Source of the DNA: Puniceicoccaceae bacterium
Lineage (GTDB): Bacteria; Verrucomicrobiota; Verrucomicrobiia; Opitutales; Oceanipulchritudinaceae
NCBI GenBank assembly: GCA_040830765.1
Contig: JBFOMH010000017.1
Coordinates: 192,001 to 256,000 of the forward strand
DNA length: 64,000 nucleotides
Reading direction: 5' to 3'
Shown: positions 35,417-55,429 of the stretch, piece after piece
Layout of the letters: every line of letters starts with the position of its first letter
How positions within the stretch are numbered: position 1 is the first letter of the stretch
Translations under genes and position numbers: made by a program
Notes under the pieces: model-generated
Database searches by the model: none
What the model saw: the letters and a program-made list of their open reading frames with translations, nothing else
Told to the model about the DNA's origin: nothing

Positions 35417-36250
35417 TCAGATGTGGAAATTATCCCCTTCGCAGAAGACGCGGAATGGGGCCTGACAATCCTTGAAGCCAATCTTCTCATAGAGACTTTG
35501 GGCCATTTCAGTAGAATGAAGGACGCCTTTGGTGTAGCCCAGGCGCCGGGCTTCATGAAAGGCCATAACGGTCATTTTCCGGGCCAGGCCGAGTCCGCGT
35601 ACCTCCGGCTTGGTCGCCACCCCATAGATGCCGGCAACACCCGCTCCGAGGTTGAGGACAACCTTCGATACGGGAACTCCCATGTGCCAGGCAATCCAGC
35701 AGCGCAGCGGTCCCTCGGATTCACCTACCGGAAACTGATTGGTCACTTCCGGTAACAACGGCTTGATTTCCGGCGGGACTTCCCAGCGCCAGGCAATCAA
35801 TTCATATATGGCATTCAAGTCATCCTTGGTGACCGCCTCGCGGATCTGGATGCCCGGCGTGGTCTCTTCGGTGATTTCTGGGAGGTCGGCCAGTTCCATC
35901 GTCATGCCCGGACAGGACTCGGCTTCCGAAAAGCCGCGTGTTTCCAGGCGCTTGCCAAGATCGGCCGGGGTCGACGTCGGGTGGACAATCCAGAAGAAGG
36001 GCATGCCCCGGTCATGGTAATGCTTGAAGATGGCGTCAATCCGTTGTTCAGCAGTCTCCTCCCTGAGGCGGCTCCGGATGACCCCGTTATAGGGGAGGGT
36101 CCGGATGGGCGTGTCGAAGTAAGTCACTTCATCATCCTCATGCAGACTGCAGCCGTGCCCCATGCCGAACATGCGCCACATTGTCCACAGGTTCTCTTCC
36201 AGGGCGCGCAGGTTTTCTCCTCCCGAACTGCTGTCTGCAGTTTGTTCCAT
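35417..36250 (-). CDS. GNAT-family N-acetyltransferase
   Basis: GIYGVATKPEVRGLGLA and SLYEKIGF acetyl-CoA-binding motifs. Confidence 0.85.
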   Translation of the reverse strand: MEQTADSSSGGENLRALEENLWTMWRMFGMGHGCSLHEDDEVTYFDTPIRTLPYNGVIRSRLREETAEQRIDAIFKHYHDRGMPFFWIVHPTSTPADLGKRLETRGFSEAESCPGMTMELADLPEITEETTPGIQIREAVTKDDLNAIYELIAWRWEVPPEIKPLLPEVTNQFPVGESEGPLRCWIAWHMGVPVSKVVLNLGAGVAGIYGVATKPEVRGLGLARKMTVMAFHEARRLGYTKGVLHSTEMAQSLYEKIGFKDCQAPFRVFCEGDNFHI

Positions 36251-36351
36251 GCAACAGGAATACGATCGGGCTCATCGCGGGTCAAGTTGCATTGGAAGCT
36301 GGTGTCTTTCCCCGTTGCCATGGCTCCTGGTCTCCGCTAAGGTTGCCAGCC

Positions 36352-37374
36352 ATGAAACGTAGACACTTCCTGACAACCCTCGCCGCTGCCGCCCCCGCTG
36401 CTGCCATGGCCGATACAAATCCGGGAAAACCCGCCCTTGAAGCCTGCCGCGATTCCCTCGGGGAAGTGCTTCCCCTGAGGCCGCTGGGAAGAACCGGTGA
36501 ATCGGTCACCATGCTCGGAATCGGGGGATTCCATGTTGGATGGACCACCGAAAAGGACGCTGCCGAAGTCATCGAGGCGGCCCTGGAAGGGGGTGTCCGG
36601 TTTTTTGATTCCGCGGAGTCCTACCAGCAAGGCGAAAGTGAGCGCCGTTATGGCAAGTACCTAACCCCGAATTATCGAGACCACATATTCCTTATGACTA
36701 AAACCCAGGCCAAGGATGCCAGGACCGCCCGGGAACACCTCGAGGGATCCCTCAAGCGGATGAAGACGGATTACCTCGACCTCTGGCAGATTCATTCCTT
36801 GCGCAATCCGGACGATGTCGACGGACGGCTCCAGGAAGGTGTGCTGGATGTTGTCATGAAGGCCAAGGAGGAGGGAAAGGTCCGCTTCACCGGCTTTACC
36901 GGGCACAGTAATCCGGAGGCGCATCTGCGCATCCTTGAAAAGACCGGAAGTAGCGATCCTTTCGATACATGTCAGATGCCGGTGAATGCCATCGATCCGA
37001 GTTACCACAGTTTTATCGAGCAGGTGACACCCATCCTCCTGAAAAGAAACATCGGTTTGCTGGCCATGAAGACCCTCGCCGACGGCCGTTTCTTTGCCAT
37101 GAAGTCCAACCTGCGCCGGGGTGTCGTCTGGCGGTCGGATGACCCCGCCATCCCGAATCGACTCAGTATCCGCGATGCCATGTGTTTTGCCTGGTCCCTG
37201 CCGATCAGCACCCTTATCACCGGGGCGGAGAATGCCTCCCTGGTGCGGGAAAAGGTCGACCTTGCCCGTGCCTACAGCGGCATGACCGAAGAAGAGCGCA
37301 CGGAGCTCGTCGACAAAGTGGCCGATCTCGCCGACGGCCAGGTGGAGTACTACAAGCGGCCGGTTGAGGCCTGA
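36352..37374 (+). CDS. Aldo/keto reductase with twin-arginine (Tat) signal
   Basis: MKRRHFL signal; AKR tetrad motifs FDSAESY, MTKT and LDLWQIH. Confidence 0.88.
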   Translation: MKRRHFLTTLAAAAPAAAMADTNPGKPALEACRDSLGEVLPLRPLGRTGESVTMLGIGGFHVGWTTEKDAAEVIEAALEGGVRFFDSAESYQQGESERRYGKYLTPNYRDHIFLMTKTQAKDARTAREHLEGSLKRMKTDYLDLWQIHSLRNPDDVDGRLQEGVLDVVMKAKEEGKVRFTGFTGHSNPEAHLRILEKTGSSDPFDTCQMPVNAIDPSYHSFIEQVTPILLKRNIGLLAMKTLADGRFFAMKSNLRRGVVWRSDDPAIPNRLSIRDAMCFAWSLPISTLITGAENASLVREKVDLARAYSGMTEEERTELVDKVADLADGQVEYYKRPVEA

Positions 37375-37385
37375 ATTTTCCTTAC

Positions 37386-40300
37386 CTAGAGTTCGGCATC
37401 TTCCACGCCGGCCGCATAGTCGAGGGCTGTTGAGAGGGGCAGGGTAGCCCCCTCCTGTACCTTGGCATTGAGGTCAACCCCTTGCAGCATTGCTCCGGCT
37501 TCATCGATTGCCTGGCCGACTCTTTTGGCGTCCGCTTCCGGCAGGGGAGCACCGATCGATTGCCGGATTGCCTTGGCAGCTCCAAAGAGGCGCAGGCTGC
37601 GGTCAGGTTTCTCCAGGTTAAGGGCGTTGAAAGCGAAGGTTTCAAGGATGAAGGCGAGGGAGCGCATATTGCCCAGTTCCCGTGCTACCCGCAGGCTTTC
37701 CAGCAGGTAGGCTTCACAAGCCGCTGCATCCTTTTGGTCGAGCGCTACTTCGGCGAGAGAGTTGTAGGTGTTGGCAATTTCCCCGCGGTCACCGACCTTC
37801 TGCAGGTATTCCATCGCTTTTTCGAGGTCCTTGCGGGCTCCGGCGAGGTCGCCGAGGTAGCGTTTGGCCATCCCGAGATTGTTGTAGGAGTTCCCGATGT
37901 AAAAGGGATCATTCAATTTCAGGCGGATGGCCAGGGCCTCTTCCTGGTAGTCCAATGCCTCGTCCAGCTTTCCCTGGAAGCGAAGGATAATGCCGGTATT
38001 GCTAAGGAGGCTGGTGACGTGTTTCTCCTGGCCCAGTTTGCGGCGGATTTCAATGCTTTGGGCATAGACTTCCCGGGCCTTGTCATACTGTCCGGTCTGT
38101 GCAGCGAGGGTGCCTTCACTGTGCAGGACGTCACCCATGCCTGATTCATCACCCAACGCGGTATAGGCTTCCCGGGCCTGCTCCAGCCATTTCCCTGCCT
38201 CCTCCATGGCACCGGTCTTGCGGTGAAGGTCCCCGATATCGAGGCGGCAATTGGCGATTTCCCCCTCCATTTGCAGGGATTCCGCCAGTTGCAGGGCATC
38301 CTCGTAGGTTTGCATGGACTCCTTCCAGTCGCCCGTTACTTCCAGAACCTTTCCGAGGTTGCTCAGGACAGGAACTTTATCCGGACCGTCAAGGAGTGGT
38401 AACAAGGACCTGTAATAACCAGCAGCGGTCCCAGCGGCATAGGCCTCGCGGGCGGCATCGCCCGCCAGGAGGAAATATTTCCGCTGCTTTTCCCGGTTCG
38501 GGCTGCGGCCGAAGTGGAAGGCCAGAAGATCGAGCATCTGGGTATTCTCCTCCCGGTAATGTTTCTCCAGAAAAAGGCCGATGGCTTCGTGCAGAATTGC
38601 CCGTAACTGTTTGGTCAGGCTTTCATAAGCGACCTCATGGATGACCACGTGCTTGAAGAGATAGGCCAGCTCAGCATCCTCTTCGTCGGGCGAGGTAAAG
38701 TCATTTTCGGTCAGGGCAGACAAGGCTTTCCGAACCTCCCGCTCGCCTCCCAAGTCGGGATAGACCCCCCAGACAACAGCGGCCCGGAAAATGCGCCCGA
38801 CCACACTGGCCACCTTCATGGTGATACGGGAATTCTCATTCAGCTGGTCCATCCGGCTGAGGACGAGTGCATACAAGCTGACCGGAAGATCGGCCTTCTC
38901 GAGGTCAGAGACAGAGGTCACTTCAATCTGCTCGTGATGCAGCCAGTTCATGACCTCATCGATGAAGAACGGATTGCCTCCGGTTTTCCGGGCAATGGTC
39001 TCAACAACTGCTTCCGGCACGTTCTGGTCGGCTCCAAATAGCTGGGCGAATTTCAGGCTGATTAACTCGGCTGCTTCCGCACTGTTGAATTCCGGTAATT
39101 CCAGGGAGACAACATAATCGAGACCGGACTCTGCCTCCGAAAAGAGTTCATTATCGTTATTGGGCCGGCGGGCGATGAGCAACATTACCGGCATCCGGGC
39201 GATGGCCTGGACGAGACTCCGAAATAATTCCCCGGAAACATCGTCAATCGCATGGGCATCCTCAAGGACGATAAGTATTGGATTGTCCTCGGAGGCATGG
39301 CGCAGGCACTCCACGAGCATACTCTCCAATGAAGCACGCCTTAGTTTCGCGTCGAAGGTCCGGGTCAATTCATTGTCAGCAATCTGAAGGTCCAAAACGG
39401 CACCAAGGAGGGGAAGGCGTGGCCCCAGGCGTTCATCAATTGTCTTCAGTTGGCGGCGCAGGGACGCTTCTGCTTCTTCCACGGGAATGGCCGGGTTAAG
39501 GCCAAAGAACTCGCGCCAGATTCGCCACCACGGGGCGTAGAGCGTGCTGTTGCCGAAGGTTTGGCACTCGCCGCTGTAAATCCGGAAGCCGGCAGACCGG
39601 GCCAATTTTGCCGTCTCCGCGACAAGGCGGCTCTTGCCCATTCCGGCATCGGCCTGCAGGGAAACCACCTGGCCAAACCCTTCCCGGGTCCGGTTCAGGC
39701 AATTTTCGATGGCCGCCAATTCCTCTTTTCGCCCGACCATGGGAAATGCCGAGCCTTCTCCTCCATCTGTTGCCAGGGAGCGCTCGGACTTGCCCTCCAG
39801 GCGAAAAACAGCCACTGGCTCGGACTTTCCCTTCACCCGGATATGGGGAAGGGTCTGCAGTTGAAAAGCCCGGCGTCCCTCCTTGTATGCCGGTTCGGAG
39901 ACGAGAATTTCCCCGGGGTCCGCCTTTCCCATCAAGCGGGCGGACAAGTTGACCTGGTCGCCAAGGACCCCATAGGTCCTTCTTGAAGGCCCGCCGTAGG
40001 CTCCGGTACGGGTGGAGCCCCGGCCAATGCCGATGCGGACAGCGGAGATGAAGTCCAGGTTTGCGGTCAGTTGTTGAATCTCCAGCGCGGCGGCCATGGT
40101 CCTCAATGTATCGTCCTCGTGGGAGATGGGGGCACCGAAGGCAGCATAAAGGAAGCTGCCTTTGTCACCAACCGTCAGCTGGTGGACAACCCCTTCGTAT
40201 TCATTGACGATCACCTGTACCCAGGAGAAAAAGGCATCCAGCTTTTTGTCTGCCTGCGAGTCCCCTTCAAAGTCGATGCCCTCGAACTTGACGAACATGG

Positions 40301-41078
40301 CCGTTGCCGGCCTCAGCTCGGTGAAGAATTCGCCCAATCCGGAGGAAATACGATTGCGGATGGCTGAAATAATCCACGGGTCAACCAGACCCGGCGGAAC
40401 TTCCAGAAAGCCGAGGTTTGGCCATGGCTCCTGCTCGACCGGGTTCACCAGCGAATGGATGACCCAGGCCAAAGTTTGGCCGGTGTCATCCTGCCGTTCT
40501 TCACCCAGCTCGGCATCACCGCCCAGGTTTTCGCGGGTTTCCGGGTCGATGAGCACTTCACCACGTTCTGCCAGTCCCTCGACTACGGCCACCCGGTAGA
40601 CCGGATCGCCGGCAAGGACATCGACCTTCTGGATGGATTCATCCCCAACCGCGAAGCGTTTAACCGTGCCGCTGGTCACCGCCGCCTTCAAACCAAGACC
40701 AATCGAACCGCCTCCAGGTGAGGGAATAGCCTGGAACGCTTCCATTCCTTTCTGCATCGCCAATGCGCATCCTACGGCCCGATGGCCGTCATCCTCCTCA
40801 AACCAGCAAGTAATGGCGTCTCCGGCGAATCCGATGACACTGCCCCGCACCCGGTCCACCTCCCCGATAAGCATGGCGTAAACCTCATTGAGGACCCGGG
40901 TAAGTTCCTCACCTCCCAAGCGCGAACCCAGATGAGCCTCAAAGGCCTCCGTCAAGGGGGTGAATCCCGAAATATCGGCAAACAATACCGTCCCTGCAGA
41001 CTGCTCCGGCAGGTCACCCGCCGAGGCCAAGGCCAACAGGCGGTCGCGGGGGACGTAAGCGTTGTAAGACTCCTTCAT
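37386..41078 (-). CDS. Class III nucleotidyl cyclase (two cyclase domains)-STAND AAA ATPase-TPR protein (soluble adenylyl cyclase-like)
   Basis: C1 motifs FADISGFT and FAGDA; C2 motifs GDKG and VNLSARLM; Walker A ADAGMGKS; Walker B LIVLEDAH; GGNPFF; C-terminal TPRs (YNNLG, LSNLG). Confidence 0.9.
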   Translation of the reverse strand: MKESYNAYVPRDRLLALASAGDLPEQSAGTVLFADISGFTPLTEAFEAHLGSRLGGEELTRVLNEVYAMLIGEVDRVRGSVIGFAGDAITCWFEEDDGHRAVGCALAMQKGMEAFQAIPSPGGGSIGLGLKAAVTSGTVKRFAVGDESIQKVDVLAGDPVYRVAVVEGLAERGEVLIDPETRENLGGDAELGEERQDDTGQTLAWVIHSLVNPVEQEPWPNLGFLEVPPGLVDPWIISAIRNRISSGLGEFFTELRPATAMFVKFEGIDFEGDSQADKKLDAFFSWVQVIVNEYEGVVHQLTVGDKGSFLYAAFGAPISHEDDTLRTMAAALEIQQLTANLDFISAVRIGIGRGSTRTGAYGGPSRRTYGVLGDQVNLSARLMGKADPGEILVSEPAYKEGRRAFQLQTLPHIRVKGKSEPVAVFRLEGKSERSLATDGGEGSAFPMVGRKEELAAIENCLNRTREGFGQVVSLQADAGMGKSRLVAETAKLARSAGFRIYSGECQTFGNSTLYAPWWRIWREFFGLNPAIPVEEAEASLRRQLKTIDERLGPRLPLLGAVLDLQIADNELTRTFDAKLRRASLESMLVECLRHASEDNPILIVLEDAHAIDDVSGELFRSLVQAIARMPVMLLIARRPNNDNELFSEAESGLDYVVSLELPEFNSAEAAELISLKFAQLFGADQNVPEAVVETIARKTGGNPFFIDEVMNWLHHEQIEVTSVSDLEKADLPVSLYALVLSRMDQLNENSRITMKVASVVGRIFRAAVVWGVYPDLGGEREVRKALSALTENDFTSPDEEDAELAYLFKHVVIHEVAYESLTKQLRAILHEAIGLFLEKHYREENTQMLDLLAFHFGRSPNREKQRKYFLLAGDAAREAYAAGTAAGYYRSLLPLLDGPDKVPVLSNLGKVLEVTGDWKESMQTYEDALQLAESLQMEGEIANCRLDIGDLHRKTGAMEEAGKWLEQAREAYTALGDESGMGDVLHSEGTLAAQTGQYDKAREVYAQSIEIRRKLGQEKHVTSLLSNTGIILRFQGKLDEALDYQEEALAIRLKLNDPFYIGNSYNNLGMAKRYLGDLAGARKDLEKAMEYLQKVGDRGEIANTYNSLAEVALDQKDAAACEAYLLESLRVARELGNMRSLAFILETFAFNALNLEKPDRSLRLFGAAKAIRQSIGAPLPEADAKRVGQAIDEAGAMLQGVDLNAKVQEGATLPLSTALDYAAGVEDAEL

Positions 41079-41258
41079 TAGTGGGTTCGGGGCGGATGAT
41101 AGACTTCAGCGGGTAGGCGTCAAAGGACACTTTCGTAAAATTTAAAGTCTAGTCCACTTAATAGTTGCAATTAGCGTAAATCATGCCTCAAATTTCGTGC
41201 GACGCCACCCGTTCACCACTAAGGCAAATCACTCATTAAATTACGAGGACATTGTACC

Positions 41259-44200
41259 ATGCGCTCACGTCATGTTCTTTTCTGCTGCCTGAATTTCTTT
41301 TTTGGCATTATCGTTACACCGCTGCAAGCAGCTGAAATAAAAGTTGATTCCACCGCCGATCCAGGTCCCCTGCGGGACGCCATCATCGGCGCCGCGCCAG
41401 GCGACGTGGTGCTCCTGCGGGCTGAAGGAGAAGTCCTTCTCACATCCCCGTTGCCCGTTCGCCGCGGTATTCGAATTGAAGGACAAAGCGGTCCGTTGGC
41501 CCACACGCTCAAGGTGAGTGGAGATTTCCGACATTTCGATGTCAGCGGCCTTCCCGTTGACGAGACGGCGACCATTGCCCGGCTGACCCTTGAGGGAAAT
41601 CTGCCCGAAGATGCCGGGGGCGGTATCAGCAGCCGTTCCAATCTTCTTCTCGAAAGTGTCCAGGTGGTGGACAGCAGCGCAGAGCATGGCGGGGCGATTG
41701 CCCAAACGGGAGCATCCCTTGGTATTGATTTGTCCTATTTCGCCCGCAATGAATCTGAACTGGCTGGTGGATTGGAAGGCTCCGGGGGAGCTGTTTACGC
41801 TAGTGGAGCGGAGTTGACCGTTACCTCGACAGGATTTGTCAGCAACGTGGCCGGCAGTGGGGGGGCAATTGCCTTTGCGGGACCAGACTCCAGCCTTATT
41901 GTCCGCAGCAGCACATTTTCTGGAAATAGGGCTGTTATCTCAGGGGGTGCGGTATCGCTGGCCAGTGGAGATGGCCGATTCATCAACCTGACACTGGTCG
42001 ACAACAATAGTGGAGCAGATACGCTTTCCCACATAAATGCGGGTACCAATGCAATCACTGTGGGAAACTCACTGGTGGTTGGTGAGGGTGATGGGTTGCC
42101 TGGAATCCTCGGTGATCTGCAAGCAGAAGGAACGGGAACCAACCGTTCAGGCACAGACCTGTCCTTGGGTCTGGGAATGCCTGCCGGAGCCTATGGCGGT
42201 CTCCGTCCGACCTATCTCCTTCATCCTGGCAGGACGGCCCTCCCTGACGGGAGTAATTTGCTGCTTCCCGAAACCGACCGTGACCAACGCGGATTGGCCC
42301 GCTTTTCCGACGGTGATGGCGAAGGCGGGGACATTGTCGATCAGGGAGCATTTGAGGTGCAGCACTACAAGGTATCCGCCTTGCAGATCCGCGGTTCGGC
42401 CACGGGTGGCAAGGACGACGGCGGTTACGGAAATCCCTTTGATCCAAGTGATGATGCGGATTCCATCGCCTCGGCGGATGTCTTTGTCCAACTGACAAAC
42501 ACCAACAAAGCTGACATCGGGGATGCGGTGGGAGCCAATAATGCCGCTGGCGGTGGATCGGTTTCGTTTGATGAAAGAACCTGGGGAGGGCGTGTTGTTC
42601 TCAAGGGCCGGGAGCTGGAGGTTCGCCGGGATATTGCGATTTATGGACCCGGGGCGACCCGGATGTTTATTGACGGAAGTGCCAGTTCACCGGTCTTCCG
42701 GATTGGTGAAGCAGGCCAGGACGTCCTTGCCTACATGGAGGGCATCTCCATCGAGAACGGGCTCGCAGAGACCGGAGCCGGAATTGTTGTTCAGGATGGA
42801 GGGCGCGTTTCACTCAAGGAAGTACAATTAAAAGGTAATTCCGCCAGTCTGGCCGGCGGGGGGATTGCCGTCCTTTCCGGTGCGACGGATCTTTATCGGA
42901 GTTCCCTCATCGATAACCAGGCAGGTGACCAGGGTGGGGGCATCTTCGGTTCGATAGATTCCGTTATCGTCATTGATACGAGCACCCTTTCTGGAAATTC
43001 AGCAGGTTCCATGGGTGGAGCCGTGGCAAGCTCGGGTGACCTGACCATCGACTCCTCGACCATCGTGGCAAACGGAGCGAACTCCAATACCGGTCTCCTG
43101 GTTGAAGGGGCCACTGGCATTATCCAGAATACAATCCTCTCCCTCGGTACGGCCGATACCATCGATGCCGGCTCTGGGACATCGGTGAACTCAGGTGGAT
43201 ACAACCTTTCCGAGGCCAGCGAGGGCGGCTTCCTCCTTAATGCCACTGATTTGAGCGGTACTGATCCGGAATTAAACGTTCGCTCATTGAATGATGGTGA
43301 AACGCTTTCCCATGCCCCCAAGGGCACCAGTCCGGCCATTGATGCCGGGAGCAGCTATTTTCCGCTTGTCGATGGCCAGCTGGACCAGCCGGGTAATGAC
43401 CGGGTCAAGGGGGCCGCTATCGATATTGGTTCTGTTGAGCTGCAGAACGATTCTCCAACTATCGAATGTATCAGCGAACCGGATACAGAGTGTGTTTCCT
43501 CCTCCGGTGCGCTGGTTGCTGTTGACGTGCTTGTCGATGACGTCGACAAGGATGACCTGACTGTGACCTGGAGTGCGGCGGGTGTTTCTGAGACGCAGAA
43601 TGTTGCTGGGGCAGAGTTGCCGCTAGCCAGTCCATTGTCACAGGACTTGCTCCTGCCAATCGGTACGACAACTGTCACCATCACGGTTTCGGATGGATTT
43701 ACCTCAGCCAGTTGTGCGGTCATGGTCAAGGTGGCAGACACCACCGCCCCGACTGTAACCCTTTCCGGCCCAACCTCCATCAATCTGGAGTGCGGTATCG
43801 ATGCGTATGTTGAATATGGAGCGACGGCTTCCGATATCTGTGATCCGGGCCCCACTGTAGTCATTTCACCGATACTGGACAGTTACCCGGAAACCGGTAC
43901 CTATACGGTTACCTACACTGCAGCCGATGCGGCGGGCAACTCCAGCTCCGCAACCCGGACGGTCAACGTCGTGGACACGACGGATCCTGTCGTTACCCTC
44001 AACGGGAGCGCTCTCGTCACATTGCAGTGTGGGGTTGATACATTTTCGGATCCGGGTGCAACGGCCCTGGATGACTGTGAGGGAGCGTTGGACGTCGGCC
44101 TCCCGGTCCGGACGGACTTGGAGCTACTGACCGAGAACTCCGTCGAGACTTACCGGTTAACCTACAGTGTCACGGATTCCTCCGGGAACACCGGCAGTGC

Positions 44201-47200
44201 AAGCCGGGTTGTGGATGTCATCGACACTGTTGCCCCGTCCATATCCCTCAACCAGCCGGATTATGGAACGATTGTCTGTGGTGTGGACAGCTATGTGGAA
44301 TACGGTGCCAGTGCCACGGATAATTGCCAGACCTCCATTTCAGTGGGTGCCCCGATCCGGACGGACCTGCCATTGGCGAGTGTAGATTCCTTTGAAACCT
44401 ACTTGCTGACATACACGGCCACTGATGCCACCGGAAACGCTGCCTCGGTTTCCCGCACAGTTGACATCATCGACAACAGCGCCCCAACGTTTACTTCCGT
44501 TCCTGCAGACTCACAGCCCCTCACGGATGCGGGGTACTGCTTTGCCACGGTGGAGTTCGAAGCCGTTGCTACGGATACCTGTGATACCGATCTGACCATT
44601 ACCTACGACATCCTTCCCAACGAAGCTTATCCTGACGGCCTGAATGGGATCCAGTCTGGTCACCGCTTCCCGCCACTTCCCGATGGTCAGGGTGGGTGGT
44701 TGCCTCATGTTGTCCGCGTTACCGCCACCGATGATACCGGGAAATCCGTTTCCGACACCTTCGACGTGACGGTCGAAGACAAGTATAACAACTGCGCCTT
44801 CAATGTGGCCTGGCCCGCTTCCCTCGACCTGAGTTTCGAACAAAGGGATGGATTTGTTGAAGCAACCCAGCAGCAGTTGCTGGGGCTGACCGACCAGTCC
44901 CGCTGGTACAAGTTTTCGGTGACGCCAGGCAGCCGGGTGACGATTATCCTTTCCAGCCTCCCGGCCAATTATGACATCGTCGTTTACCGTGATATACGGG
45001 AAGAATTCGAACGTATCCTCGATCTTTTCCTCAATGGCACATCCGAGGAACAGGAGCTTTCCCTTCTCGGTGCGGAATTCGCCCCGGAAAGCTTCACTCC
45101 GGAAAGTTTCCTCCCCGAAAGCTTCCTCCCGGAAAGTTTCCTTCCGGAAAGCTTCCTCCCGGAGAGCTTCCTGCCTGAGAGTTTTCTCCCGGAAAGTTTT
45201 ATTGCCGAAGCCTTCTCCCCGGAAAGTTTTCTCCCGGAAAGCTTCATCCCGGAGAGCTTCCTCGTGGACAGTTATTCACCGGAAAGCTTCCTTCCGGAAA
45301 GTTTCCTTCCCGAGAGCTTCCTGCCTGAGAGTTTTCTCCCCGAAAGTTTTCTTCCAGAGAGTTTTATAGGAGAAGAGAATTTTACCCCCGAGTCGTTTAT
45401 CGCCGCCCAGCTGTCGAGCATGATTGCCTATTCCGCATTTCCGGGCGTGGCCAGTGAAGGAGTAACCATCAATACCTACACCACAAGCGGGGATTTCTAT
45501 GTTCGCGTGCGCGGAGCCAATGGTGTCTTTGACGGTATTAATCCGTTCACCTTGTCGGTCTTCATTGAGGAAGAAGTCTGTGGTGATCCCGATGGGGAAG
45601 GACCCTTGACGGGAGTCCAGGGTCCGGAGTCCTTTGCCGGAGCAGTTCCCCAGGGACTAGCTGGCGACTTCCAGACTCTCATCCTCTGGGATTCCTCCCG
45701 CACAGCTGGAAGCGATACCGACATCGCAACACTCGGCTCCATGTTGGAGACCTTCAAGCAGCGCACCGAGGTCAATGGTGAAATCATCGACCTGGCCCTT
45801 CAGGATCGCGTCGTGGAGGCAAATATCCAGGCGGATGCCTACCCAACCTGCCCATACGCCAAGAATCTCGTCGCTGAGGAAATAAAGGCTGTCATCGATG
45901 CCTGGAGGGATTCCACCACGGTCGACGGGGTTTCCTCCCTGAAGTACATCATGCTACTGGGTAATGATGATGTCATTCCGTTCTTCCGGACAACCGATCA
46001 GGCTTTCCTGGCCAACGAATCCAATTACGTCCCACCGGTGCGGGATAACAACCATTCCCAGTCCAGCTTGCGCTACGGGCAAATCCTGACCCAGGATCCT
46101 TATGGAGCAGATTGCGTGGTCAACCTTTCGACCGGTCCCTATCCCTACGGGGGACTTGCTGTGGGCCGTCTTGTGGAATCCGCTGCCGACATGATTGGCC
46201 AATTGGAAAACTACAACGCCTTGAGCGGTGGCCTGCTTCCCGTTCCGGATACCGCACTGGTTACCGGGTATGACTTCCTTGATGACCTTGCCGGTGCAGT
46301 CGAATTCGAATTGGAAGCAGCCCTTGGGAGCCAGATCGATACCTTGGTCGATGCCTCGACAACAGCCCCGGCCGATGGCTGGACAGCGACTGAGCTGGCG
46401 GACATTTTCCTCGGCTCCCATCATGACATCGTATTCCTTGCCGGTCACTTCAGCACCGGTAGCGCCCTGGCAGCCGACTACGAGACCCGTCTGACGGCAG
46501 CCCAGGTCAGGGAATCTGGTGCCGACTTGCTAAACACTTTAATCTTCAGCATCGGCTGTCACTCCGGTTACAACACCGTGGACAGCCATGCCATCAACGG
46601 GATTACCAAGCAGCCGGACTGGGCCCAGGCCTTTGCCCAGATGGGGGCCACCCTGATTGCCGGTACCGGCTACCAGTACGGTGATACCGAGTTTGTTGAG
46701 TACAGTGAACGCCTCTATCTGGAGATGGTGCGTCAGCTTCGGACCGGACCCGGCGCGGTGTCGGTTGGGGAAGCATTGGTCAATGCCAAGAAGAAGTACC
46801 TTGCCGAAACCGAATTGATGCGGGGGATTCATGAAAAATCCCTCCTGCAGGCGACGCTCTTCGGGTTCCCGATGCTGAAAATGAATGTGCCCGGTGACCG
46901 CATTACTTCTCCGTCAGGAAGTTCGGTGGTCCCTGCATCCCTTCCTGTGGTAGGCAGCAATCCAGGTCAATACCTCGGGCTTTCAGCTCATGACCTGAAC
47001 CTCGATTACAGCAGTCTGCCCCTTGTCGAGCCCAACACCTTGACCGTCTTTGATCCGGGAGCTGATCCTGGCGACAAGTCGGATGACACTGAATACACCT
47101 TGAAGTGGTATGAGGGTGGGAACGGCATTGTCAGTAATCCGATCGAGCCGGTGCGTCCATTGGACAGTTATTTCGTTTCAGTCCCCGGCAATCTGCTCCG

Positions 47201-49421
47201 CGGTGTCGGATTCCGGGGCGGTGATTATATCGATGAAAGCAATTTCCTCACTCTCACGGGTGCCCCGACTACGGAAATCCGCGGGGTCTTTGGTGAGTTC
47301 ATAACGGAAGTCTTCTATCCCGTGCAGCCATACAGCACCAACTATTTCGGCGCTATCTGTGGCGCTAACGAGGGCGAGCGGCTCAATGTCTACCGTACCC
47401 AGTACTACAACCCGGATGATGGAATCGAGGGCGGTACGCTGCGGAAGTACAGCAGCATGAACTTCCGTTTGTACTACAACAACAACCGGGAAACGTACTA
47501 CAATGCCAATGGGGATGCCATCATCCCGGCCTTGACGGCTCCACCCTCCATTTCCCGGGTTCTCTCATCAACTGATGGGTCATCGGTCGATTTCGATATC
47601 ACGGTGCTCGCTTCCCCGGCAGTCGGTGTCCAGGAAGTCTGGATTACCTACACCGGCATACCCGGCTCAGCCCTCCATGGCTCATGGCAATCCTTCGACC
47701 TGGGGCAAGGCGCTCTTCCGGACACAATGGTCTGGTCGGGGAACCTGCCTTTGCCCGAAGGCGTTCATCCCGACGAGGTCCGTTTCATGGTTCAGGCGGC
47801 ATCCGGCATAGGCCTGGTATCCCTGAAGAGCAACTTCGGCCAGTATTATCAGGTCGGTGTCGATGAACTGGCCGCGCGAATGACATCGGAGATTTCCATA
47901 ACGGAAGTTTTGCCCGCAGCGGCCGACTATGGCTACGGTGAGACCTTGACCGTCAAAGCCCTCCTGAAGGGTTACAGCGAGTCGAGCCAATCCTTTGAAG
48001 CCCTTGCCGGCAAGCGGGTGGGGATCCGGGTCGGTGCCTCGCGGGTTTCCGGGACGACCGGGGCGGACGGTATTGTCACCCTTGACCTTCCCCTTCAGGT
48101 GCGCCCTGCCACCGAGTTGCTGCAGGCCTATTTTACCGGGGACCTGCTCTTCAGCCCAAGCGCGGTTGATCAACCTATCACTATCACAAAGCAGGACACG
48201 GTTCTTGCTTTCGATGAAGGCATTCCGGTTCCACCCAATGAGATCTTCGGATCGGATGTGGTGGTTAGCCTGCGCGATGCCATTGGTACGCCCTTGAAGG
48301 AACGGACGGTCTTCTTCCTCGTCGATTACGGCTCCTTCCAGATTGGCAACTCTGTCATCACGGACATCGCCGGGCGGGCTGATTTGAGCGAAATCTTCCT
48401 GCCCTCTGGAAGTGCTACCATTACGGCCTACTTCAATGGCACTATTCCCTTGCCGGACGCCGATCCGGTGACGATTACCGATTTGCTCTACAAAGCCGCA
48501 ACCCCGGTCAGTATCGACGTTCTCCTGGATCAGCCGATCAGGGAGGATAGCCTGGGCTTCGATCCGCAACAGGTGGATATCTATTACAAGTCCAGTGGCA
48601 ACGGGAGAAACGCCATTCCTCTCTATGAGAACGCTTCCATAGCCGGTGACGTGGCTTTTAATGTACCGCTTCAGCCTGATGACTTGACAGCAGATCTTGA
48701 GAATCCGGATTACATCTCCGGCTATGTTTTTGCCACCCTGGCGGGTGAAGTTATCGTCGATGAACCGGTTACCCTGGACACGCGCGGCGACAACGGCAAT
48801 CACTGGACGACGACCAGTCAGCCCGGACAGGCAGCTGCCTACGTTGGCATTCACTGGTCGGATGCACCTCGCTTCGACAGTGCCCTGTCCGAGAGTCCAG
48901 GCCCCAGGATTTCCACTGTTTTCATCGGTAACAACTTCACTGAGTTCCGGTACGTCCCTCTACCGGGTACTGGCAGCTATACCACGACATTCCCCAATGG
49001 TGGACCAACGATCGTGGTCAAGCGGGGAGTTGTCGATCCTGAGGCCAGCGGTCTGGCGGAAGGAGAGTACGGTCTTGATGAGGGTGGTCTGGTCTTCACT
49101 GTCAAATTTGGACTGGAACCGGGAATGAGCTTCCTCACACGGGACAGTTCGAACAACAATCCGTTCCCGGATATCGAAGTGGAGGTGATTCCTGAGATTA
49201 ACTATCTCACCGAAGGCGGGCGCATGATCATCCGGCTTCAGGCGGTTCCCGGCATGCCGGAATTTCCGCCGGCATCGAATGCGGAACCCAACCTTTTCGA
49301 GTGTCGGTTTATCCTCGGGCCCGATGATGGTGTCCAGGTCCGCTCCATCGCACGGATTGGAGAAGGTCTTTACGCAATTCCCTGGACCAGTGAAGATCCC
49401 GGGCACAAACAATACCGGTGA
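41259..49421 (+). CDS. Giant (2720 aa) secreted modular protein: two beta-helix/choice-of-anchor-Q modules, Ig-like/HYR repeats, PPC-like domain with xPESF array, C25/caspase-clan peptidase domain, Ig-like domains
   Basis: Signal peptide; GGA(I/V) repeats and SPAIDAG...DIGSVE; DTTAPTVTL repeats; peptidase motifs YIMLLG, VGRL, AGH, GCHSG, GEALVNAK and LFGFP. Confidence 0.8.
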   Translation: MRSRHVLFCCLNFFFGIIVTPLQAAEIKVDSTADPGPLRDAIIGAAPGDVVLLRAEGEVLLTSPLPVRRGIRIEGQSGPLAHTLKVSGDFRHFDVSGLPVDETATIARLTLEGNLPEDAGGGISSRSNLLLESVQVVDSSAEHGGAIAQTGASLGIDLSYFARNESELAGGLEGSGGAVYASGAELTVTSTGFVSNVAGSGGAIAFAGPDSSLIVRSSTFSGNRAVISGGAVSLASGDGRFINLTLVDNNSGADTLSHINAGTNAITVGNSLVVGEGDGLPGILGDLQAEGTGTNRSGTDLSLGLGMPAGAYGGLRPTYLLHPGRTALPDGSNLLLPETDRDQRGLARFSDGDGEGGDIVDQGAFEVQHYKVSALQIRGSATGGKDDGGYGNPFDPSDDADSIASADVFVQLTNTNKADIGDAVGANNAAGGGSVSFDERTWGGRVVLKGRELEVRRDIAIYGPGATRMFIDGSASSPVFRIGEAGQDVLAYMEGISIENGLAETGAGIVVQDGGRVSLKEVQLKGNSASLAGGGIAVLSGATDLYRSSLIDNQAGDQGGGIFGSIDSVIVIDTSTLSGNSAGSMGGAVASSGDLTIDSSTIVANGANSNTGLLVEGATGIIQNTILSLGTADTIDAGSGTSVNSGGYNLSEASEGGFLLNATDLSGTDPELNVRSLNDGETLSHAPKGTSPAIDAGSSYFPLVDGQLDQPGNDRVKGAAIDIGSVELQNDSPTIECISEPDTECVSSSGALVAVDVLVDDVDKDDLTVTWSAAGVSETQNVAGAELPLASPLSQDLLLPIGTTTVTITVSDGFTSASCAVMVKVADTTAPTVTLSGPTSINLECGIDAYVEYGATASDICDPGPTVVISPILDSYPETGTYTVTYTAADAAGNSSSATRTVNVVDTTDPVVTLNGSALVTLQCGVDTFSDPGATALDDCEGALDVGLPVRTDLELLTENSVETYRLTYSVTDSSGNTGSASRVVDVIDTVAPSISLNQPDYGTIVCGVDSYVEYGASATDNCQTSISVGAPIRTDLPLASVDSFETYLLTYTATDATGNAASVSRTVDIIDNSAPTFTSVPADSQPLTDAGYCFATVEFEAVATDTCDTDLTITYDILPNEAYPDGLNGIQSGHRFPPLPDGQGGWLPHVVRVTATDDTGKSVSDTFDVTVEDKYNNCAFNVAWPASLDLSFEQRDGFVEATQQQLLGLTDQSRWYKFSVTPGSRVTIILSSLPANYDIVVYRDIREEFERILDLFLNGTSEEQELSLLGAEFAPESFTPESFLPESFLPESFLPESFLPESFLPESFLPESFIAEAFSPESFLPESFIPESFLVDSYSPESFLPESFLPESFLPESFLPESFLPESFIGEENFTPESFIAAQLSSMIAYSAFPGVASEGVTINTYTTSGDFYVRVRGANGVFDGINPFTLSVFIEEEVCGDPDGEGPLTGVQGPESFAGAVPQGLAGDFQTLILWDSSRTAGSDTDIATLGSMLETFKQRTEVNGEIIDLALQDRVVEANIQADAYPTCPYAKNLVAEEIKAVIDAWRDSTTVDGVSSLKYIMLLGNDDVIPFFRTTDQAFLANESNYVPPVRDNNHSQSSLRYGQILTQDPYGADCVVNLSTGPYPYGGLAVGRLVESAADMIGQLENYNALSGGLLPVPDTALVTGYDFLDDLAGAVEFELEAALGSQIDTLVDASTTAPADGWTATELADIFLGSHHDIVFLAGHFSTGSALAADYETRLTAAQVRESGADLLNTLIFSIGCHSGYNTVDSHAINGITKQPDWAQAFAQMGATLIAGTGYQYGDTEFVEYSERLYLEMVRQLRTGPGAVSVGEALVNAKKKYLAETELMRGIHEKSLLQATLFGFPMLKMNVPGDRITSPSGSSVVPASLPVVGSNPGQYLGLSAHDLNLDYSSLPLVEPNTLTVFDPGADPGDKSDDTEYTLKWYEGGNGIVSNPIEPVRPLDSYFVSVPGNLLRGVGFRGGDYIDESNFLTLTGAPTTEIRGVFGEFITEVFYPVQPYSTNYFGAICGANEGERLNVYRTQYYNPDDGIEGGTLRKYSSMNFRLYYNNNRETYYNANGDAIIPALTAPPSISRVLSSTDGSSVDFDITVLASPAVGVQEVWITYTGIPGSALHGSWQSFDLGQGALPDTMVWSGNLPLPEGVHPDEVRFMVQAASGIGLVSLKSNFGQYYQVGVDELAARMTSEISITEVLPAAADYGYGETLTVKALLKGYSESSQSFEALAGKRVGIRVGASRVSGTTGADGIVTLDLPLQVRPATELLQAYFTGDLLFSPSAVDQPITITKQDTVLAFDEGIPVPPNEIFGSDVVVSLRDAIGTPLKERTVFFLVDYGSFQIGNSVITDIAGRADLSEIFLPSGSATITAYFNGTIPLPDADPVTITDLLYKAATPVSIDVLLDQPIREDSLGFDPQQVDIYYKSSGNGRNAIPLYENASIAGDVAFNVPLQPDDLTADLENPDYISGYVFATLAGEVIVDEPVTLDTRGDNGNHWTTTSQPGQAAAYVGIHWSDAPRFDSALSESPGPRISTVFIGNNFTEFRYVPLPGTGSYTTTFPNGGPTIVVKRGVVDPEASGLAEGEYGLDEGGLVFTVKFGLEPGMSFLTRDSSNNNPFPDIEVEVIPEINYLTEGGRMIIRLQAVPGMPEFPPASNAEPNLFECRFILGPDDGVQVRSIARIGEGLYAIPWTSEDPGHKQYR
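45081..45398 (+). repeat. In-frame 15-bp tandem repeat encoding 18 xPESF pentapeptides plus degenerate units (IAEAF, LVDSY, IGEENF)
   Basis: Counted from DNA (consensus CTY CCN GAR AGY TTY); codons vary synonymously. Confidence 0.95.
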
Positions 49422-49544
49422 GGATTCCCTGCCGGTTTGGATAATTACGGGATTGACGCCTCACCATGTGCACCAAATCTTTGTCCGCATGCCCGCGCCG
49501 GTGTGTGCATATCAGAATAACCAGACTATAGTTGCATCCGTTTT

Positions 49545-49898
49545 ATGCTGACCCTTTTTGAGCAAGCCCTCGTCATGCACATCATTGGCGATTGGATCCT
49601 CCAGAACGATTGGATGGCCAACAACAAGCTGAGCCTGAAACATCCAGCTGCCTGGATACATGCCGGTATTCACGCTGTCCTCCTGGGCTTAGTCCTCGGG
49701 TGGCCAGCGGGGCTGATTATCGGGGTTTTCCACATGTTGATCGATACCCGGGTTCCTTTTCGCTGGTGGCAGCGCACGTTTCGCATGACGGAGGATGGGC
49801 CCACCGCTGTCCATGTCGCCATCTGGACGGATCAGGTGATGCACGTCCTATGTCTTGCCATCTGGGTACAATTCTTTGCAGACTTTACCCTGAATTAA
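49545..49898 (+). CDS. DUF3307-like membrane protein
   Basis: HIIGDWILQxxWMAxxK, HAGIH, HMLID and DQVMH motifs. Confidence 0.8.
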   Translation: MLTLFEQALVMHIIGDWILQNDWMANNKLSLKHPAAWIHAGIHAVLLGLVLGWPAGLIIGVFHMLIDTRVPFRWWQRTFRMTEDGPTAVHVAIWTDQVMHVLCLAIWVQFFADFTLN

Positions 49899-49935
49899 TT
49901 CTCTCTCAGACAACCGATAACTGGATATCCTTCCC

Positions 49936-50319
49936 ATGAGTGATAAAATCAAGTTCAAGATTCTCAAGCACGCCGGCAACCTCGATGAATTCAAGCAAGG
50001 TGATACTATCTTCAAAAAGGGAGATCCCGGCGAGACGATGTTTGTCGTGGCCTCTGGAACAGTGGACATCGTTGCCGAGGGTTCGGTTGTGGACCAGTTG
50101 ACCGAAGGCGATATTTTTGGGGAAATGTCCCTTATCGACAAGCAGGTACGCAGTGCCGATGCTGTGGCCAATACCGACTGTTCCCTCGTCACTATCGACG
50201 AGAAGCGCTTCCTGTACATGACCGACCACACGCCACGATTTGCCCTGCAGGTGATGCGCCTGGTGGCCAATCGTCTGCGCGACCGCATGGCTGAGCTGGA
50301 AGAGCTGCGTAAGCAGTAG
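49936..50319 (+). CDS. Stand-alone cyclic-nucleotide-binding (CNB) domain protein
   Basis: IFKKGDPGETMFVVASG and the phosphate-binding cassette FGEMSLID...RSADA; no HTH. Confidence 0.9.
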   Translation: MSDKIKFKILKHAGNLDEFKQGDTIFKKGDPGETMFVVASGTVDIVAEGSVVDQLTEGDIFGEMSLIDKQVRSADAVANTDCSLVTIDEKRFLYMTDHTPRFALQVMRLVANRLRDRMAELEELRKQ

Positions 50320-50409
50320 GGTTCCGCCAGGCTAGCGGATTGTTCGCCTGAAAATATACTCGATTGGCGAATTGGGCACAATAGATGCTCAATCCAAGGC
50401 TCATCAGCA

Positions 50410-52242
50410 ATGAGCCTTTTTACCTCCTCTCTCAACAGTATCCGGCACCTCATTGAGGAAATCCACGAGAACCACCGGCATCTCTACGAAGGTGAGATCG
50501 CGGATTACATCCCGGAACTGACTCGGGCCAACCCGGACTGGTTCGGGATCGCCATCACGACCGTTGACGGTCGGCAGTACCTCGTTGGTGACACGGCCAT
50601 CGAGTTTACTATCCAGTCCGTTTCCAAGCCCTTTATTTATGGTCTGGCACTGGATGCCATCGGGCCTGAGGCGGTTCGGCACAAGATAGATGTCGAGCCG
50701 TCGGGTGAGGCCTTCAATTCGATCAGCCTGAAGCCGACAACGGGTCAGCCGATGAATCCGATGATCAATGCCGGGGCCATTGCGGCAACGGGCATGATCC
50801 CGGCAAGCTCGGCCGAGGAGCGGTTTGCCTTTATCCTGCAAAAATTCAGCGACCTGGCCGGATGCCAACTGACCCTCGATGACTCCGTCTACCGCTCGGA
50901 AAGCGAAACAGGATTCCGCAACCGGGCCATTGGCAACCTGATGCGCAACTTTGATATCCTCGAGGGAGAGGTCGATCCCATCCTTGAGGCTTACTTCATG
51001 CAGTGTGCCATCCTTGTCGATAGCAAGTCATTGTCTGTTATGGGAGCAACCCTTGCCAATGGGGGAGTGAATCCTCTCACCGGCGAACGGGTCCTGAGCC
51101 GGGCCTCTGTGGAGAAGGTAATCAGTGTCATGAGTACCTGTGGCATGTACGACTATTCTGGCAACTGGGCCTTTGAGGTCGGGATTCCGGCCAAAAGTGG
51201 CGTGGGTGGCGGCATCATCGGGGTACTGCCGGGACAGCTCAGTGTGGCGGTCTTCTCGCCCTTGCTGGACCCGAATTTCAACAGTGTCCGGGGTATCGCC
51301 ACTTTTCGGGACTTGTCACAGAGCTTTGGACTCCACTTGTTCAACCGGCCCTCATTGACCGACTATGTCATTCGTCGCTCTTACACTTTGGCGGAATTCC
51401 AATCGAGCCACTTCCGGCCCAAGGAGGCGCATGATATCCTCCAGAGAGAGGGAGAACGGGTACGCATTTTCGAACTGCAGGGTGATCTCTATTTCGGTGC
51501 CCTGGAAAGGCTTATCCATGCATACCTGCAGAACTTCGACAATATGGAGCGGGCGGTTATCGACCTGACCCGGATTGGGAGTATTGATGAAGCAACGCGG
51601 GAAATCGTCTTCCGTTTTGCCAGGCAGGGATTTGAGAAGGGGAAGCGTATCGTCCTCGTCGATCCGGGCGGGATTTTCACAGAAGAGGAACGACGCAGCC
51701 TGGTCCCGATGGCCTTTGTTTACAATGATTGCGACGAGGCCCTTGAGGATGCCGAAGAAAACCTTCTCGCCCAATTTGGGGCCCGTACGGAGGCCACCCT
51801 GGCCGTTCCATTCGAGGCCATGGACCTTCTCCAGGATATGGAGACGGCAGCCCTGGATGAGCTCATGGCATTATGCGAACGCCGTTCCATTTCAGCGGGT
51901 TCAACGATTATCAAGCAAGGCACTCCTCCCTTGGAGATGTACTTCCTTTCGAAAGGCACGGTTGGCGTGCTCCTGCCACGGGAGAATGGTAAAGACTTCC
52001 GTCAGGTCTCCAGTTTTACCCCGGGCATGAGTTTTGGTGAACTGGGATTCCTGCAGGGCCAAATCCGGACCGCAGATGTGAAAGCGATCACGGACGTCGA
52101 GCTCTATGCATTGGACCAAAAGGCTATCGGGGCATTCCGGAAGTCACATCCGGAAGGTTACCAAACGATTCTCCACAACGCCTTGCTTTCCATGTCCGAC
52201 CGCCTGCTGCGTGCGAACAGGGAAGTGGCGGCATTGAAATAA
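50410..52242 (+). CDS. glsA: Glutaminase A fused to STAS and cNMP-binding domains
   Basis: ADYIPEL, FTIQSVSKP (catalytic SxxK), NPMINAGAI and PAKSGVGGG; STAS-like ELQGDLYFG...IDLTRI; CNB motif FGELGF...RTADV. Confidence 0.9.
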   Translation: MSLFTSSLNSIRHLIEEIHENHRHLYEGEIADYIPELTRANPDWFGIAITTVDGRQYLVGDTAIEFTIQSVSKPFIYGLALDAIGPEAVRHKIDVEPSGEAFNSISLKPTTGQPMNPMINAGAIAATGMIPASSAEERFAFILQKFSDLAGCQLTLDDSVYRSESETGFRNRAIGNLMRNFDILEGEVDPILEAYFMQCAILVDSKSLSVMGATLANGGVNPLTGERVLSRASVEKVISVMSTCGMYDYSGNWAFEVGIPAKSGVGGGIIGVLPGQLSVAVFSPLLDPNFNSVRGIATFRDLSQSFGLHLFNRPSLTDYVIRRSYTLAEFQSSHFRPKEAHDILQREGERVRIFELQGDLYFGALERLIHAYLQNFDNMERAVIDLTRIGSIDEATREIVFRFARQGFEKGKRIVLVDPGGIFTEEERRSLVPMAFVYNDCDEALEDAEENLLAQFGARTEATLAVPFEAMDLLQDMETAALDELMALCERRSISAGSTIIKQGTPPLEMYFLSKGTVGVLLPRENGKDFRQVSSFTPGMSFGELGFLQGQIRTADVKAITDVELYALDQKAIGAFRKSHPEGYQTILHNALLSMSDRLLRANREVAALK

Positions 52243-55428: not shown

Positions 55429-55429
55429 G

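Follow-up and report, generated by a model that had tools for sequence, protein, structure and literature searches.

A conserved gene pair of a soluble-type cyclase and a giant secreted C25-like protein in a Puniceicoccaceae bacterium and in other bacterial phyla

Human soluble adenylyl cyclase, ADCY10, carries its catalytic domains C1 and C2 in tandem, and the full-length protein also has a P-loop NTPase and TPR region. The cue sensed by the STAND-TPR region of soluble-type adenylyl cyclases has, to our knowledge, not been established in any organism, and we know of no partner of ADCY10 that resembles the giant protein described here. According to a review (PMC11006738), bicarbonate activates a Chloroflexus cyclase as it does the mammalian enzyme. 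We analyzed a 64,000-nucleotide stretch of the genome of a Puniceicoccaceae bacterium (GenBank assembly GCA_040830765.1, contig JBFOMH010000017.1, positions 192,001 to 256,000), hereafter the window, which encodes a cyclase-STAND-TPR protein next to a 2720-residue secreted protein. Comparison of gene neighborhoods indicates that these two genes are the invariant core of the locus and that their linkage is not due to chance.

The cyclase resembles ADCY10 in its tandem C1-C2 domains, in the metal-binding Asp and the transition-state Asn and Arg residues, and in the NTPase and TPR region, which here follows the catalytic domains. The giant protein is most like the gingipains (Peptidase C25, clan CD): its homologues match nearly the whole family profile and retain a His and a Cys, and it is likewise a secreted protein of several domains, in which Ig-like domains follow the catalytic part. 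It differs in that the window sequence itself is too divergent to score and has no match in the PDB, and gingipains are not known to us to have a PPC-like domain with a pentapeptide insert or a linkage to a cyclase. A likeness in possible working only is offered by the RRNPP or Rap-Phr systems, where a cytosolic TPR sensor likewise stands beside a secreted protein with five-residue units. Phr signals are five residues long. Here, however, the neighbor is a large enzyme-like protein rather than a small pro-peptide, and the output is a cyclase behind a STAND ATPase rather than a helix-turn-helix domain or a phosphatase. With Pycsar and CBASS the locus shares a cyclase gene with adjacent cyclic nucleotide-binding (CNB) proteins and domain-level PADLOC matches; it differs in lacking a killing effector and a defense-island context and in having a tandem soluble-type cyclase, a STAND-TPR input and a giant secreted partner. 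Glutaminase A with STAS and CNB domains is a database architecture of which the fusion protein in the window is a full-length member; its linkage to the pair is limited to Puniceicoccaceae. The component families are known, and modules that combine a cyclase with CNB readers are known as well. Three features appear to be new: the conserved partnership between the cyclase and a giant C25-like secreted protein, the pentapeptide array that occupies a fixed position in the giant family, and the recurrent link between cyclases and DUF3307. A full-text search, which covered main texts mostly outside the subscription journals, found no published description of the cyclase-giant composition, in keeping with the opinion of a first-pass annotation, made from the sequence alone, that no such system had been characterized.

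The gene make-up was defined by open reading frame (ORF) calls together with Pfam and NCBIfam profile searches, and all positions refer to the whole window. Five genes were recovered as the first-pass annotation had placed them. The cyclase-STAND-TPR gene (37386-41078, minus strand; 1230 residues) is separated by a divergent intergenic region of 180 bp (41079-41258) from the gene of the giant secreted protein (41259-49421, plus strand; 2720 residues). On the plus strand there follow a DUF3307 gene (49545-49898; 117 residues), a gene for a stand-alone CNB protein (49936-50319; 127 residues) and a gene for a glutaminase-STAS-CNB fusion (50410-52242; 610 residues), and the gaps within this co-oriented run of four genes are 123, 37 and 90 bp. 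Promoter and terminator scans of the module yielded no more sites than shuffled sequence and are therefore uninformative on operon structure; co-transcription is suggested by spacing only.

The conservation of the pair was characterized by scanning 185,579 species genomes with the core of the giant protein, which gave 496 relatives, and by examining the best 80 loci. Reverse scans supplied the best 80 of at least 555 cyclase-anchored loci and the best 80 glutaminase-anchored loci, and a locus is termed fully flanked when each side extends for at least 8 kb. These best-80 sets are dominated by Chloroflexota metagenome-assembled genomes (MAGs) and their rows are kin, and the counts that follow describe a pattern rather than independent trials. 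As labeled, the giant-anchored loci comprised 52 from Chloroflexota, 12 from Actinomycetota, 10 from Verrucomicrobiota, two from Thermomicrobiota and one from Myxococcota, with three unplaced. A near full-length cyclase orthologue (38-46% identity, approximately 1200 residues) was found beside the giant gene in 49 of the 80 loci, or in 53 when fragments at contig ends were included. The two genes were adjacent in 22 of the 29 fully flanked giant loci, at distances of 0.2-5.8 kb, upstream or downstream and on either strand. For six of the seven fully flanked loci without an adjacent cyclase, an orthologue was present elsewhere in the genome: two such split pairs share an assembly (L017/L106 and L028/L102), four more were found by genome search, and a fifth genome that was searched yielded no orthologue. 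Giant protein and cyclase therefore co-occurred in 28 of 29 genomes. When the cyclase was the anchor, the giant core was detected in 16 of 31 fully flanked loci, that is, in 13 of the 16 with cyclase matches of at least 700 bits and in 3 of the 15 below that score, which are distant paralogues. The pair was found in Chloroflexota, Actinomycetota, Verrucomicrobiota and Pseudomonadota.

Linkage also followed the phylogeny of the cyclase. A FastTree tree was built from 91 cyclases. A single clade with support 0.97, whose 69 tips include the window protein, contained 57 of the 62 linked cyclases and three fully flanked unlinked ones, two of which belong to genomes with the giant protein elsewhere. 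Linkage changed five times on the tree, compared to a mean of 10.4 (minimum 8) after shuffling, and none of 1000 label shuffles gave a value as low. Pairwise identities of the giant protein were correlated with those of the cyclase (r = 0.74; Mantel, 0 of 2000 permutations). Functional coupling of the two proteins is very probable, because their adjacency outlasts the replacement of all other neighbors in four phyla and because they co-occur when they are split. The two could instead be linked without direct coupling, as parts of one physiological program (for example, extracellular protein scavenging combined with nitrogen handling) that are transferred horizontally as a unit. Such an explanation accommodates the correlation of identities, for which co-inheritance would suffice, the 7 of 29 fully flanked loci in which the pair is split, and the glutaminase gene within the block in this genome; we nonetheless consider it unlikely, since adjacency is retained where every other neighbor has changed and since co-occurrence in 28 of 29 genomes, while still compatible with it, exceeds what is usual for loosely related functions.

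The five-gene block has a much narrower distribution than the pair, and the linkage proposed in the first-pass annotation was borne out for the pair and not for the block as a whole. In a set of 61 related genomes, three were found to carry the giant core and the same three the full-length glutaminase-STAS-CNB fusion, and the cyclase was detected in these and in one further, fragmentary genome. The five-gene order is kept in both other genomes of the three, and a cultured relative, Verrucomicrobiae bacterium DG1235 (L010), carries the same block. The five-gene block is confined to Puniceicoccaceae (the window, L008, L009 and L010). No named cultured Chloroflexus was found among the loci, including those from a genome scan seeded with a Chloroflexaceae cyclase. 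A search for an empty site in five genomes of the same genus found the flanking aldo-keto reductase and esterase genes to be non-adjacent or did not find them, and no insertion boundary was drawn. A fourth genome of the genus (84% complete) has a cyclase of the family with 43% identity and one internal stop on a 3-kb contig (G003:C126:45-3035). This copy either was acquired independently as a second one or is decaying; in that genome, the query used did not detect the giant core.

The cyclase protein has the domain organization of a soluble-type enzyme. Pfam detected Guanylate_cyc in two stretches (5e-17), corresponding to C1 (residues 28-180; 40539-40997, minus strand) and C2 (residues 236-433; 39780-40373, minus strand), followed by an AAA_16 NTPase domain (5e-19; residues 447-760; 38799-39740, minus strand) and a TPR array (TPR_12, 1e-44; residues 880-1190; 37509-38441, minus strand). 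The two cyclase domains lie in one chain, and both align to the C1 and C2 domains of human ADCY10 (4clf_A), which is the best solved relative of the first 440 residues (E 1e-24, with C1 and C2 both covered). Residue correspondence was counted along the printed alignment with chain 4clf_A, and conservation was taken from 33 cyclase orthologues. D35 and D87 align with residues 47 and 99 of 4clf_A, and N377 and R381 with residues 412 and 416; all four are invariant (33 of 33). We take the first two to be the metal-binding Asp residues of C1 and the other two to be the transition-state Asn and Arg of C2. Cyclization chemistry thus looks intact by residue conservation, and cAMP is the likeliest product. 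The architecture is that of a STAND protein, AAA_16 and then TPR, with the Walker A residues G479, G481 and K482 invariant in all 33 orthologues. No hydrophobic segment was found in the protein, which we therefore regard as cytosolic. The genome is 97% complete, and its only class III cyclase profile matches (two) are the two domains of this protein.

The giant protein consists of an N-terminal part that varies by lineage, a conserved core and C-terminal Ig-like domains, all encoded on the plus strand. The N-terminal part (to about residue 1150) comprises a signal-like segment (residues 1-24), two beta-helix or Pmp-like regions with a choice-of-anchor Q domain, and then HYR/Ig-like domains; precomputed domain lists of the homologues showed its variation among lineages. 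The core (residues ~1150-2190) was delimited by an alignment of 14 full-length relatives, and Pfam placed Big_3_5 around residues 2335-2450. The description of the protein as secreted agrees with its single hydrophobic segment, residues 4-25, which is signal-like, and a crude window test found a signal-like hydrophobic N-terminus in 49 of 61 homologues whose ORF starts inside the locus. A profile search with the core, run against clusters at 50% identity, matched 2246 of them at E ≤ 1e-30 and 4095 at E ≤ 1e-3, and the database names of the members are limited to 'CSLREA domain-containing', 'choice-of-anchor Q' or 'hypothetical'. The family is thus large and unstudied, a group of gingipain-like secreted proteins with a positionally fixed pentapeptide array.

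Within the core, a domain of about 335 residues (~1510-1845, with an extension to ~2200; 45786-47858) is C25-like as judged from homologues and conserved residues. His1730 (46446-46448) is invariant and Cys1767 (46557-46559), 37 residues later, is at least 90% conserved in 78 homologues, and both are invariant in a set of 62 sequences. Peptidase_C25 (PF01364) matched 19 of 62 homologous cores at E ≤ 1, and 16 of 58 homologous cores, which are 44-51% identical to the window protein, passed the Pfam cut-off with matches that span positions ~45-374 of the 374-position profile and include both the His and the Cys. In ESM-Atlas features for residues 1500-1900, 29 of 30 named matches were C25 clusters. 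The 'His-Cys peptidase' named in the first-pass annotation is therefore supported in part: the His and the Cys are conserved, while the peptidase family is recognizable in homologues rather than in the window sequence, for which PDB sequence searches with the core (as a single sequence, as a profile and with the best C25-scoring homologue) returned nothing meaningful. In one Verrucomicrobiales locus (L120:1-3975), a gene for an alpha-2-macroglobulin-type protease inhibitor adjoins the giant gene; this single instance fits the giant protein being a real protease.

Upstream of the C25-like domain lies a PPC-like domain (residues ~1195-1440; 44841-45578) that is interrupted by a period-5 repeat array (residues 1270-1385; 45066-45413). 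The PPC match is weak and below the cut-off (E 0.013; 16.7 bits vs. 25.9), and it covers only the first 32 profile positions, before the insert. The array holds approximately 17 units, mostly FLPES, and TRF reported a 15-bp period at 45083-45361, in agreement with the 'repeat-bearing' label given earlier. An array was present at the identical site in 69 of 69 aligned homologues, with a commonest length of ~19 units. Its unit follows a pattern of an aromatic residue, a small residue, usually Pro, and two variable residues, and units are near-identical within one protein and differ between species (FSPEA, FSPDA, FSPSA, FSPSV, YSPDV, WAPDQ, FSGAA and SPSPG). The array of L084 contains a run of X from masked bases.

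Genes other than the pair were far less constant. Clustering of all ORFs in the 80 giant loci revealed no third gene near the frequency of the pair, the next cluster occurring in 16 loci. Among the 61 clustered proteins that were scanned, CNB readers and components of partner switching (STAS and RsbW-like proteins) recurred around the pair. The CNB proteins included stand-alone forms of 121-127 residues, fusions to PP2C/SpoIIE, patatin, histidine kinase, HD, HAMP or HEAT domains, and one CRP-type regulator. Families were counted with hidden Markov models built here in the giant-, cyclase- and glutaminase-anchored loci, each of 80. CNB genes were present in 22 (37 ORFs in 1.40 Mb), 12 and 73 loci, respectively, the last being mostly the anchor fusion's own domain; SpoIIE in 8, 2 and 1; STAS in 6, 1 and 1; and RsbW-like proteins in 6, 1 and 1. 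The background in five of the same genomes was 48 CNB domain matches in approximately 23.9 Mb, and in one of these genomes all four matches lay at the module. CNB genes, which the first-pass annotation had expected to find with the cyclase, are roughly tenfold enriched around the pair, a comparison in which density and background were measured by different methods. HD genes were rejected as members of the module, their frequency being nearly equal in the glutaminase-anchored control loci (7, 8 and 5 of 80).

In seven loci with the pair outside Chloroflexota (Verrucomicrobiota, Actinomycetota, two MAGs labeled beta proteobacterium and one unplaced), the 46 neighboring ORFs scanned were unrelated genes, and CNB genes occurred only in the unplaced locus (L100). 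The minimal unit is therefore the pair, to which readers have been added in a lineage-specific manner. In Chloroflexota, partner-switching genes (for STAS, an RsbW-like kinase or a PAS-SpoIIE phosphatase) stood beside the pair in L012, L019, L020, L045, L048, L085 and L086, and CNB-SpoIIE phosphatases were encoded in L018, L025, L029 and L032. These arrangements hint at nucleotide control of a sigma-factor switch in those loci.

In the window, both candidate readers have intact nucleotide-binding cassettes. The CNB phosphate-binding cassette has the consensus Gly-Glu ... Arg-Ser/Thr-Ala, and the stand-alone CNB protein (Pfam cNMP_binding, 1e-22), which has no output domain, reads FGEMSL...RSA, and the CNB domain of the fusion FGELGF...RTA. 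The two domains are 35% identical over 75 aligned residues. They account for two of the seven CNB domain matches in the genome, the other five CNB proteins being encoded elsewhere. Relatives of the stand-alone protein with 44-47% identity adjoin the cyclase in L013, L025, L029, L032 and L053.

From these features, a signaling pathway can be proposed. C1 and C2 of the cytosolic protein would form one active site, as in soluble adenylyl cyclase, and the STAND ATPase and its TPR sensor would set the output of a cyclic nucleotide, most likely cAMP. The nucleotide would be read by two adjacent receptors, the stand-alone CNB protein and the CNB domain of the glutaminase-STAS-CNB enzyme, where binding would alter glutamine hydrolysis, with STAS as a possible relay. 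The giant protein would act on the input side: the state of the TPR-STAND switch, and with it the level of the cyclic nucleotide, would depend on that protein's extracellular action, most likely the release of a peptide cue by proteolysis. We infer enzyme activity, product, ligand binding and glutaminase regulation, and above all the direction and the means of coupling, from sequence. That the cyclase is active and that the adjacent CNB domains read its product is likely on the strength of the conserved catalytic and cassette residues. The placement of the giant protein upstream of the cyclase is more tentative; it is preferred because the readers vary and the giant protein is the sole constant besides the cyclase, and because the input domain of the cyclase is a TPR array and the partner has a peptidase-like domain. 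TPR domains commonly bind peptides. A gene partner kept across four phyla is a concrete lead on what the STAND-TPR region senses.

Several observations weigh against this pathway. The Lys/Thr pair of ADCY10 (Lys334 and Thr405), which we take to specify the base, is not kept in the cyclase, which has Gln300 (29 of 33 orthologues) and Gly370 (30 of 33) at these positions, with invariant K306 and T368 nearby, and the product nucleotide is therefore not predictable from the sequence. The Lys/Arg pair at ADCY10 residues 95 and 176, presumably the bicarbonate site, is also absent, being replaced by Gly83 (G in 17, S in 8 and A in 6 of 33) and Ala164 (31 of 33). Residues 1500-2100 of the window giant protein match no Pfam family at E ≤ 10 and so fall below the Pfam C25 threshold. 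The accessory genes are in the minority: of 49 loci, 13 have a CNB gene no more than 5 kb from the cyclase and 7 have DUF3307 within 1.5 kb. No transporter or receptor gene was conserved with the pair in the loci examined. The kinship of the loci and the unlike methods behind the CNB enrichment, both given above, belong on the same side. The array, too, contributes: no residue of the repeat unit is universal, as the SPSPG and FSGAA units illustrate, the near-constant length of ~19 units argues for a structural role of the array over a signal precursor, and repeat unit and TPR sequence showed no clear co-variation. The TPR identity residual was +0.049 for pairs with the same unit (n = 42) and -0.005 for the others (n = 393), a difference confounded by kinship, and the pairs L012/L019 and window/L009 differ in unit yet are 92-94% identical in the TPR part.

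These last points bear most directly on the boldest version of the input-side pathway, in which the array would be a polyprotein precursor from which the C25-like domain cuts, extracellularly, ~19 identical pentapeptides that are imported and bound by the cyclase TPR. We regard this version as improbable. If it were true, the system would turn cell density, or the self-cleavage of a surface protein, into a cyclic-nucleotide signal, the species-specific units would be private signal dialects, and a peptide sensor would be the ancestor of the still unexplained STAND-TPR tail in animal soluble adenylyl cyclase.

The direction of coupling could also be reversed. The TPR-STAND region would then sense an intracellular cue, and the nucleotide would control synthesis, export, processing or release of the giant surface protein as the dedicated output of the module, with the CNB enzymes as side branches, an arrangement that would resemble the second-messenger control of giant adhesins. 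The linkage data are the same for either direction, and this one needs no membrane-crossing step. The two genes run in the same direction and lie close together in many loci, as would suit co-transcription and autoregulation, and the five CNB proteins encoded elsewhere in the genome could include a transcription factor. Within the divergent gap, positions 41157-41181 form a block with an imperfect inverted repeat (core TAATAGTTGCAATTA), which L008, L009 and L010 retain in part (four sequences compared). This block could be an operator for some regulator; it appears unlike the CRP consensus. A CRP-type regulator, however, was seen among the neighbors scanned in a single two-locus cluster only, the linked readers are enzymes with outputs not evidently tied to a secreted protein, and a diffusible messenger would be unusual as a strictly local regulator of one neighboring gene. 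Control of the giant protein by the nucleotide is the main alternative and somewhat less probable than the tentative placement of the giant protein on the input side.

A role in conflict or defense was also suggested in the first-pass annotation. The STAND-TPR region would sense an invader and the cyclase would release an alarm nucleotide to which CNB effectors respond, for example by glutamine depletion, in the manner of Pycsar or CBASS. The logic of cyclase and CNB effector is indeed common to Pycsar, and PADLOC matched PycC to the cyclase (1.7e-9) and PycTIR to a CNB domain only (4e-19); the block is patchy within the genus, and STAND sensors are common in bacterial immunity. The PADLOC matches do not, however, go beyond the generic cyclase and CNB domains. 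The locus has no toxic effector domain of the TIR or membrane-disrupting kind, and a giant secreted invariant partner is foreign to such systems; the text of an eLife 2020 survey of NTP-dependent conflict systems contains neither 'gingipain' nor 'C25'. The surroundings are ordinary chromosomal genes, among them katG, an aldo-keto reductase gene, an esterase gene with GloVer repeats and larB/larC/larE, and no mobile-element or defense genes were seen in the annotated parts of the window. A defense function is thus very unlikely.

The DUF3307 protein scored 42.5 bits against a Pfam cut-off of 23. An alignment of 20 relatives showed conserved H12, D16, Q20, K28, H39, H63 and D67, with the His, Asp and Lys residues in or close to the hydrophobic segments (residues 40-67 and 98-116). 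An ESM-Atlas search retrieved nothing beyond the DUF3307 family, and full-text literature contained one unrelated phage paper. DUF3307 occurred in 11 of the 80 giant-anchored loci, usually adjoining the cyclase, and in 5 of the 80 cyclase-anchored loci, three of which (L112, L113 and L123) have a paralogous cyclase and no giant protein. It also occurred in 4 of the 80 glutaminase-anchored loci, three of them with some class III cyclase domain as well. Synechococcus loci among L205, L235 and L239 have DUF3307 beside a class III cyclase and a glutaminase-STAS-CNB gene, again without the giant protein. The linkage expected by the first-pass annotation was therefore only occasional and ran to cyclases, sometimes in loci without the giant protein: by its neighborhoods, DUF3307 appears to go with cyclases rather than with the giant protein, and it may be a general membrane companion of cyclic-nucleotide signaling. 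Its recurrence as a membrane protein beside class III cyclases gives the family a first functional context.

The glutaminase-STAS-CNB fusion comprises a glutaminase domain (50491-51342, plus strand; Pfam Glutaminase, 1e-114), a STAS domain (51454-51672, plus strand) and a CNB domain (51883-52143, plus strand; cNMP_binding, 6e-17). It scored 342 bits against a cut-off of 255 for TIGR03814 'glutaminase A', NCBIfam NF002134 spans residues 11-446, and S70 and K73 of the Ser-x-x-Lys motif are invariant in 10 fusion proteins. The outer domains of the fusion were thus strongly confirmed; the STAS match was weak and below the cut-off here (E 0.0065), while many homologues carry precomputed STAS matches. 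A word-based search gave at least 8000 homologues, and among the 120 listed there were full-length relatives of ~606 residues with 46-50% identity and the same three domains, from Verrucomicrobiales, Nitriliruptor and others. Of the 80 glutaminase-anchored loci, which also came from Pseudomonadota, Planctomycetota, Cyanobacteriota and other Actinomycetota, 70 matched the fusion through to the CNB domain. None of the 80, which represent other lineages, contained the giant core or the orthologous cyclase, and 11 contained another cyclase domain. By its distribution, the fusion is a widespread independent enzyme of predicted nucleotide control, and the Puniceicoccaceae loci are the only ones in which it accompanies the pair. 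Glutamine hydrolysis, which had been put forward as the output of the circuit, is therefore a lineage-specific output and not the point of the system. No publication joining glutaminase with cNMP-binding domains was found in the full-text search, within the coverage given above. The position of the fusion beside the only class III cyclase of the genome makes second-messenger control of glutamine breakdown directly testable.

The remainder of the window encodes, among others, holB, tmk, tolQ, a TonB-dependent receptor and a sulfatase, together with one tRNA-Ala, and Rfam detected no RNA element within the module. Downstream of the block are an esterase gene with five GloVer repeats (52250-54682) and a larB-larC-(membrane protein)-larE set (54688-58235). 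The genes larB, larC and larE serve nickel-pincer cofactor synthesis. In one of two relatives, the esterase, larB and larC genes were not on the downstream flank of the block; the esterase and lar genes are kept beside it in one relative only and are not members of the module. On the other side, the aldo-keto reductase ORF (36181-37374) overlaps a GNAT ORF (35417-36250), and homologues of the reductase align only from residues ~43-57 onward. The true start of the reductase probably lies ~130-170 bp downstream of position 36181.

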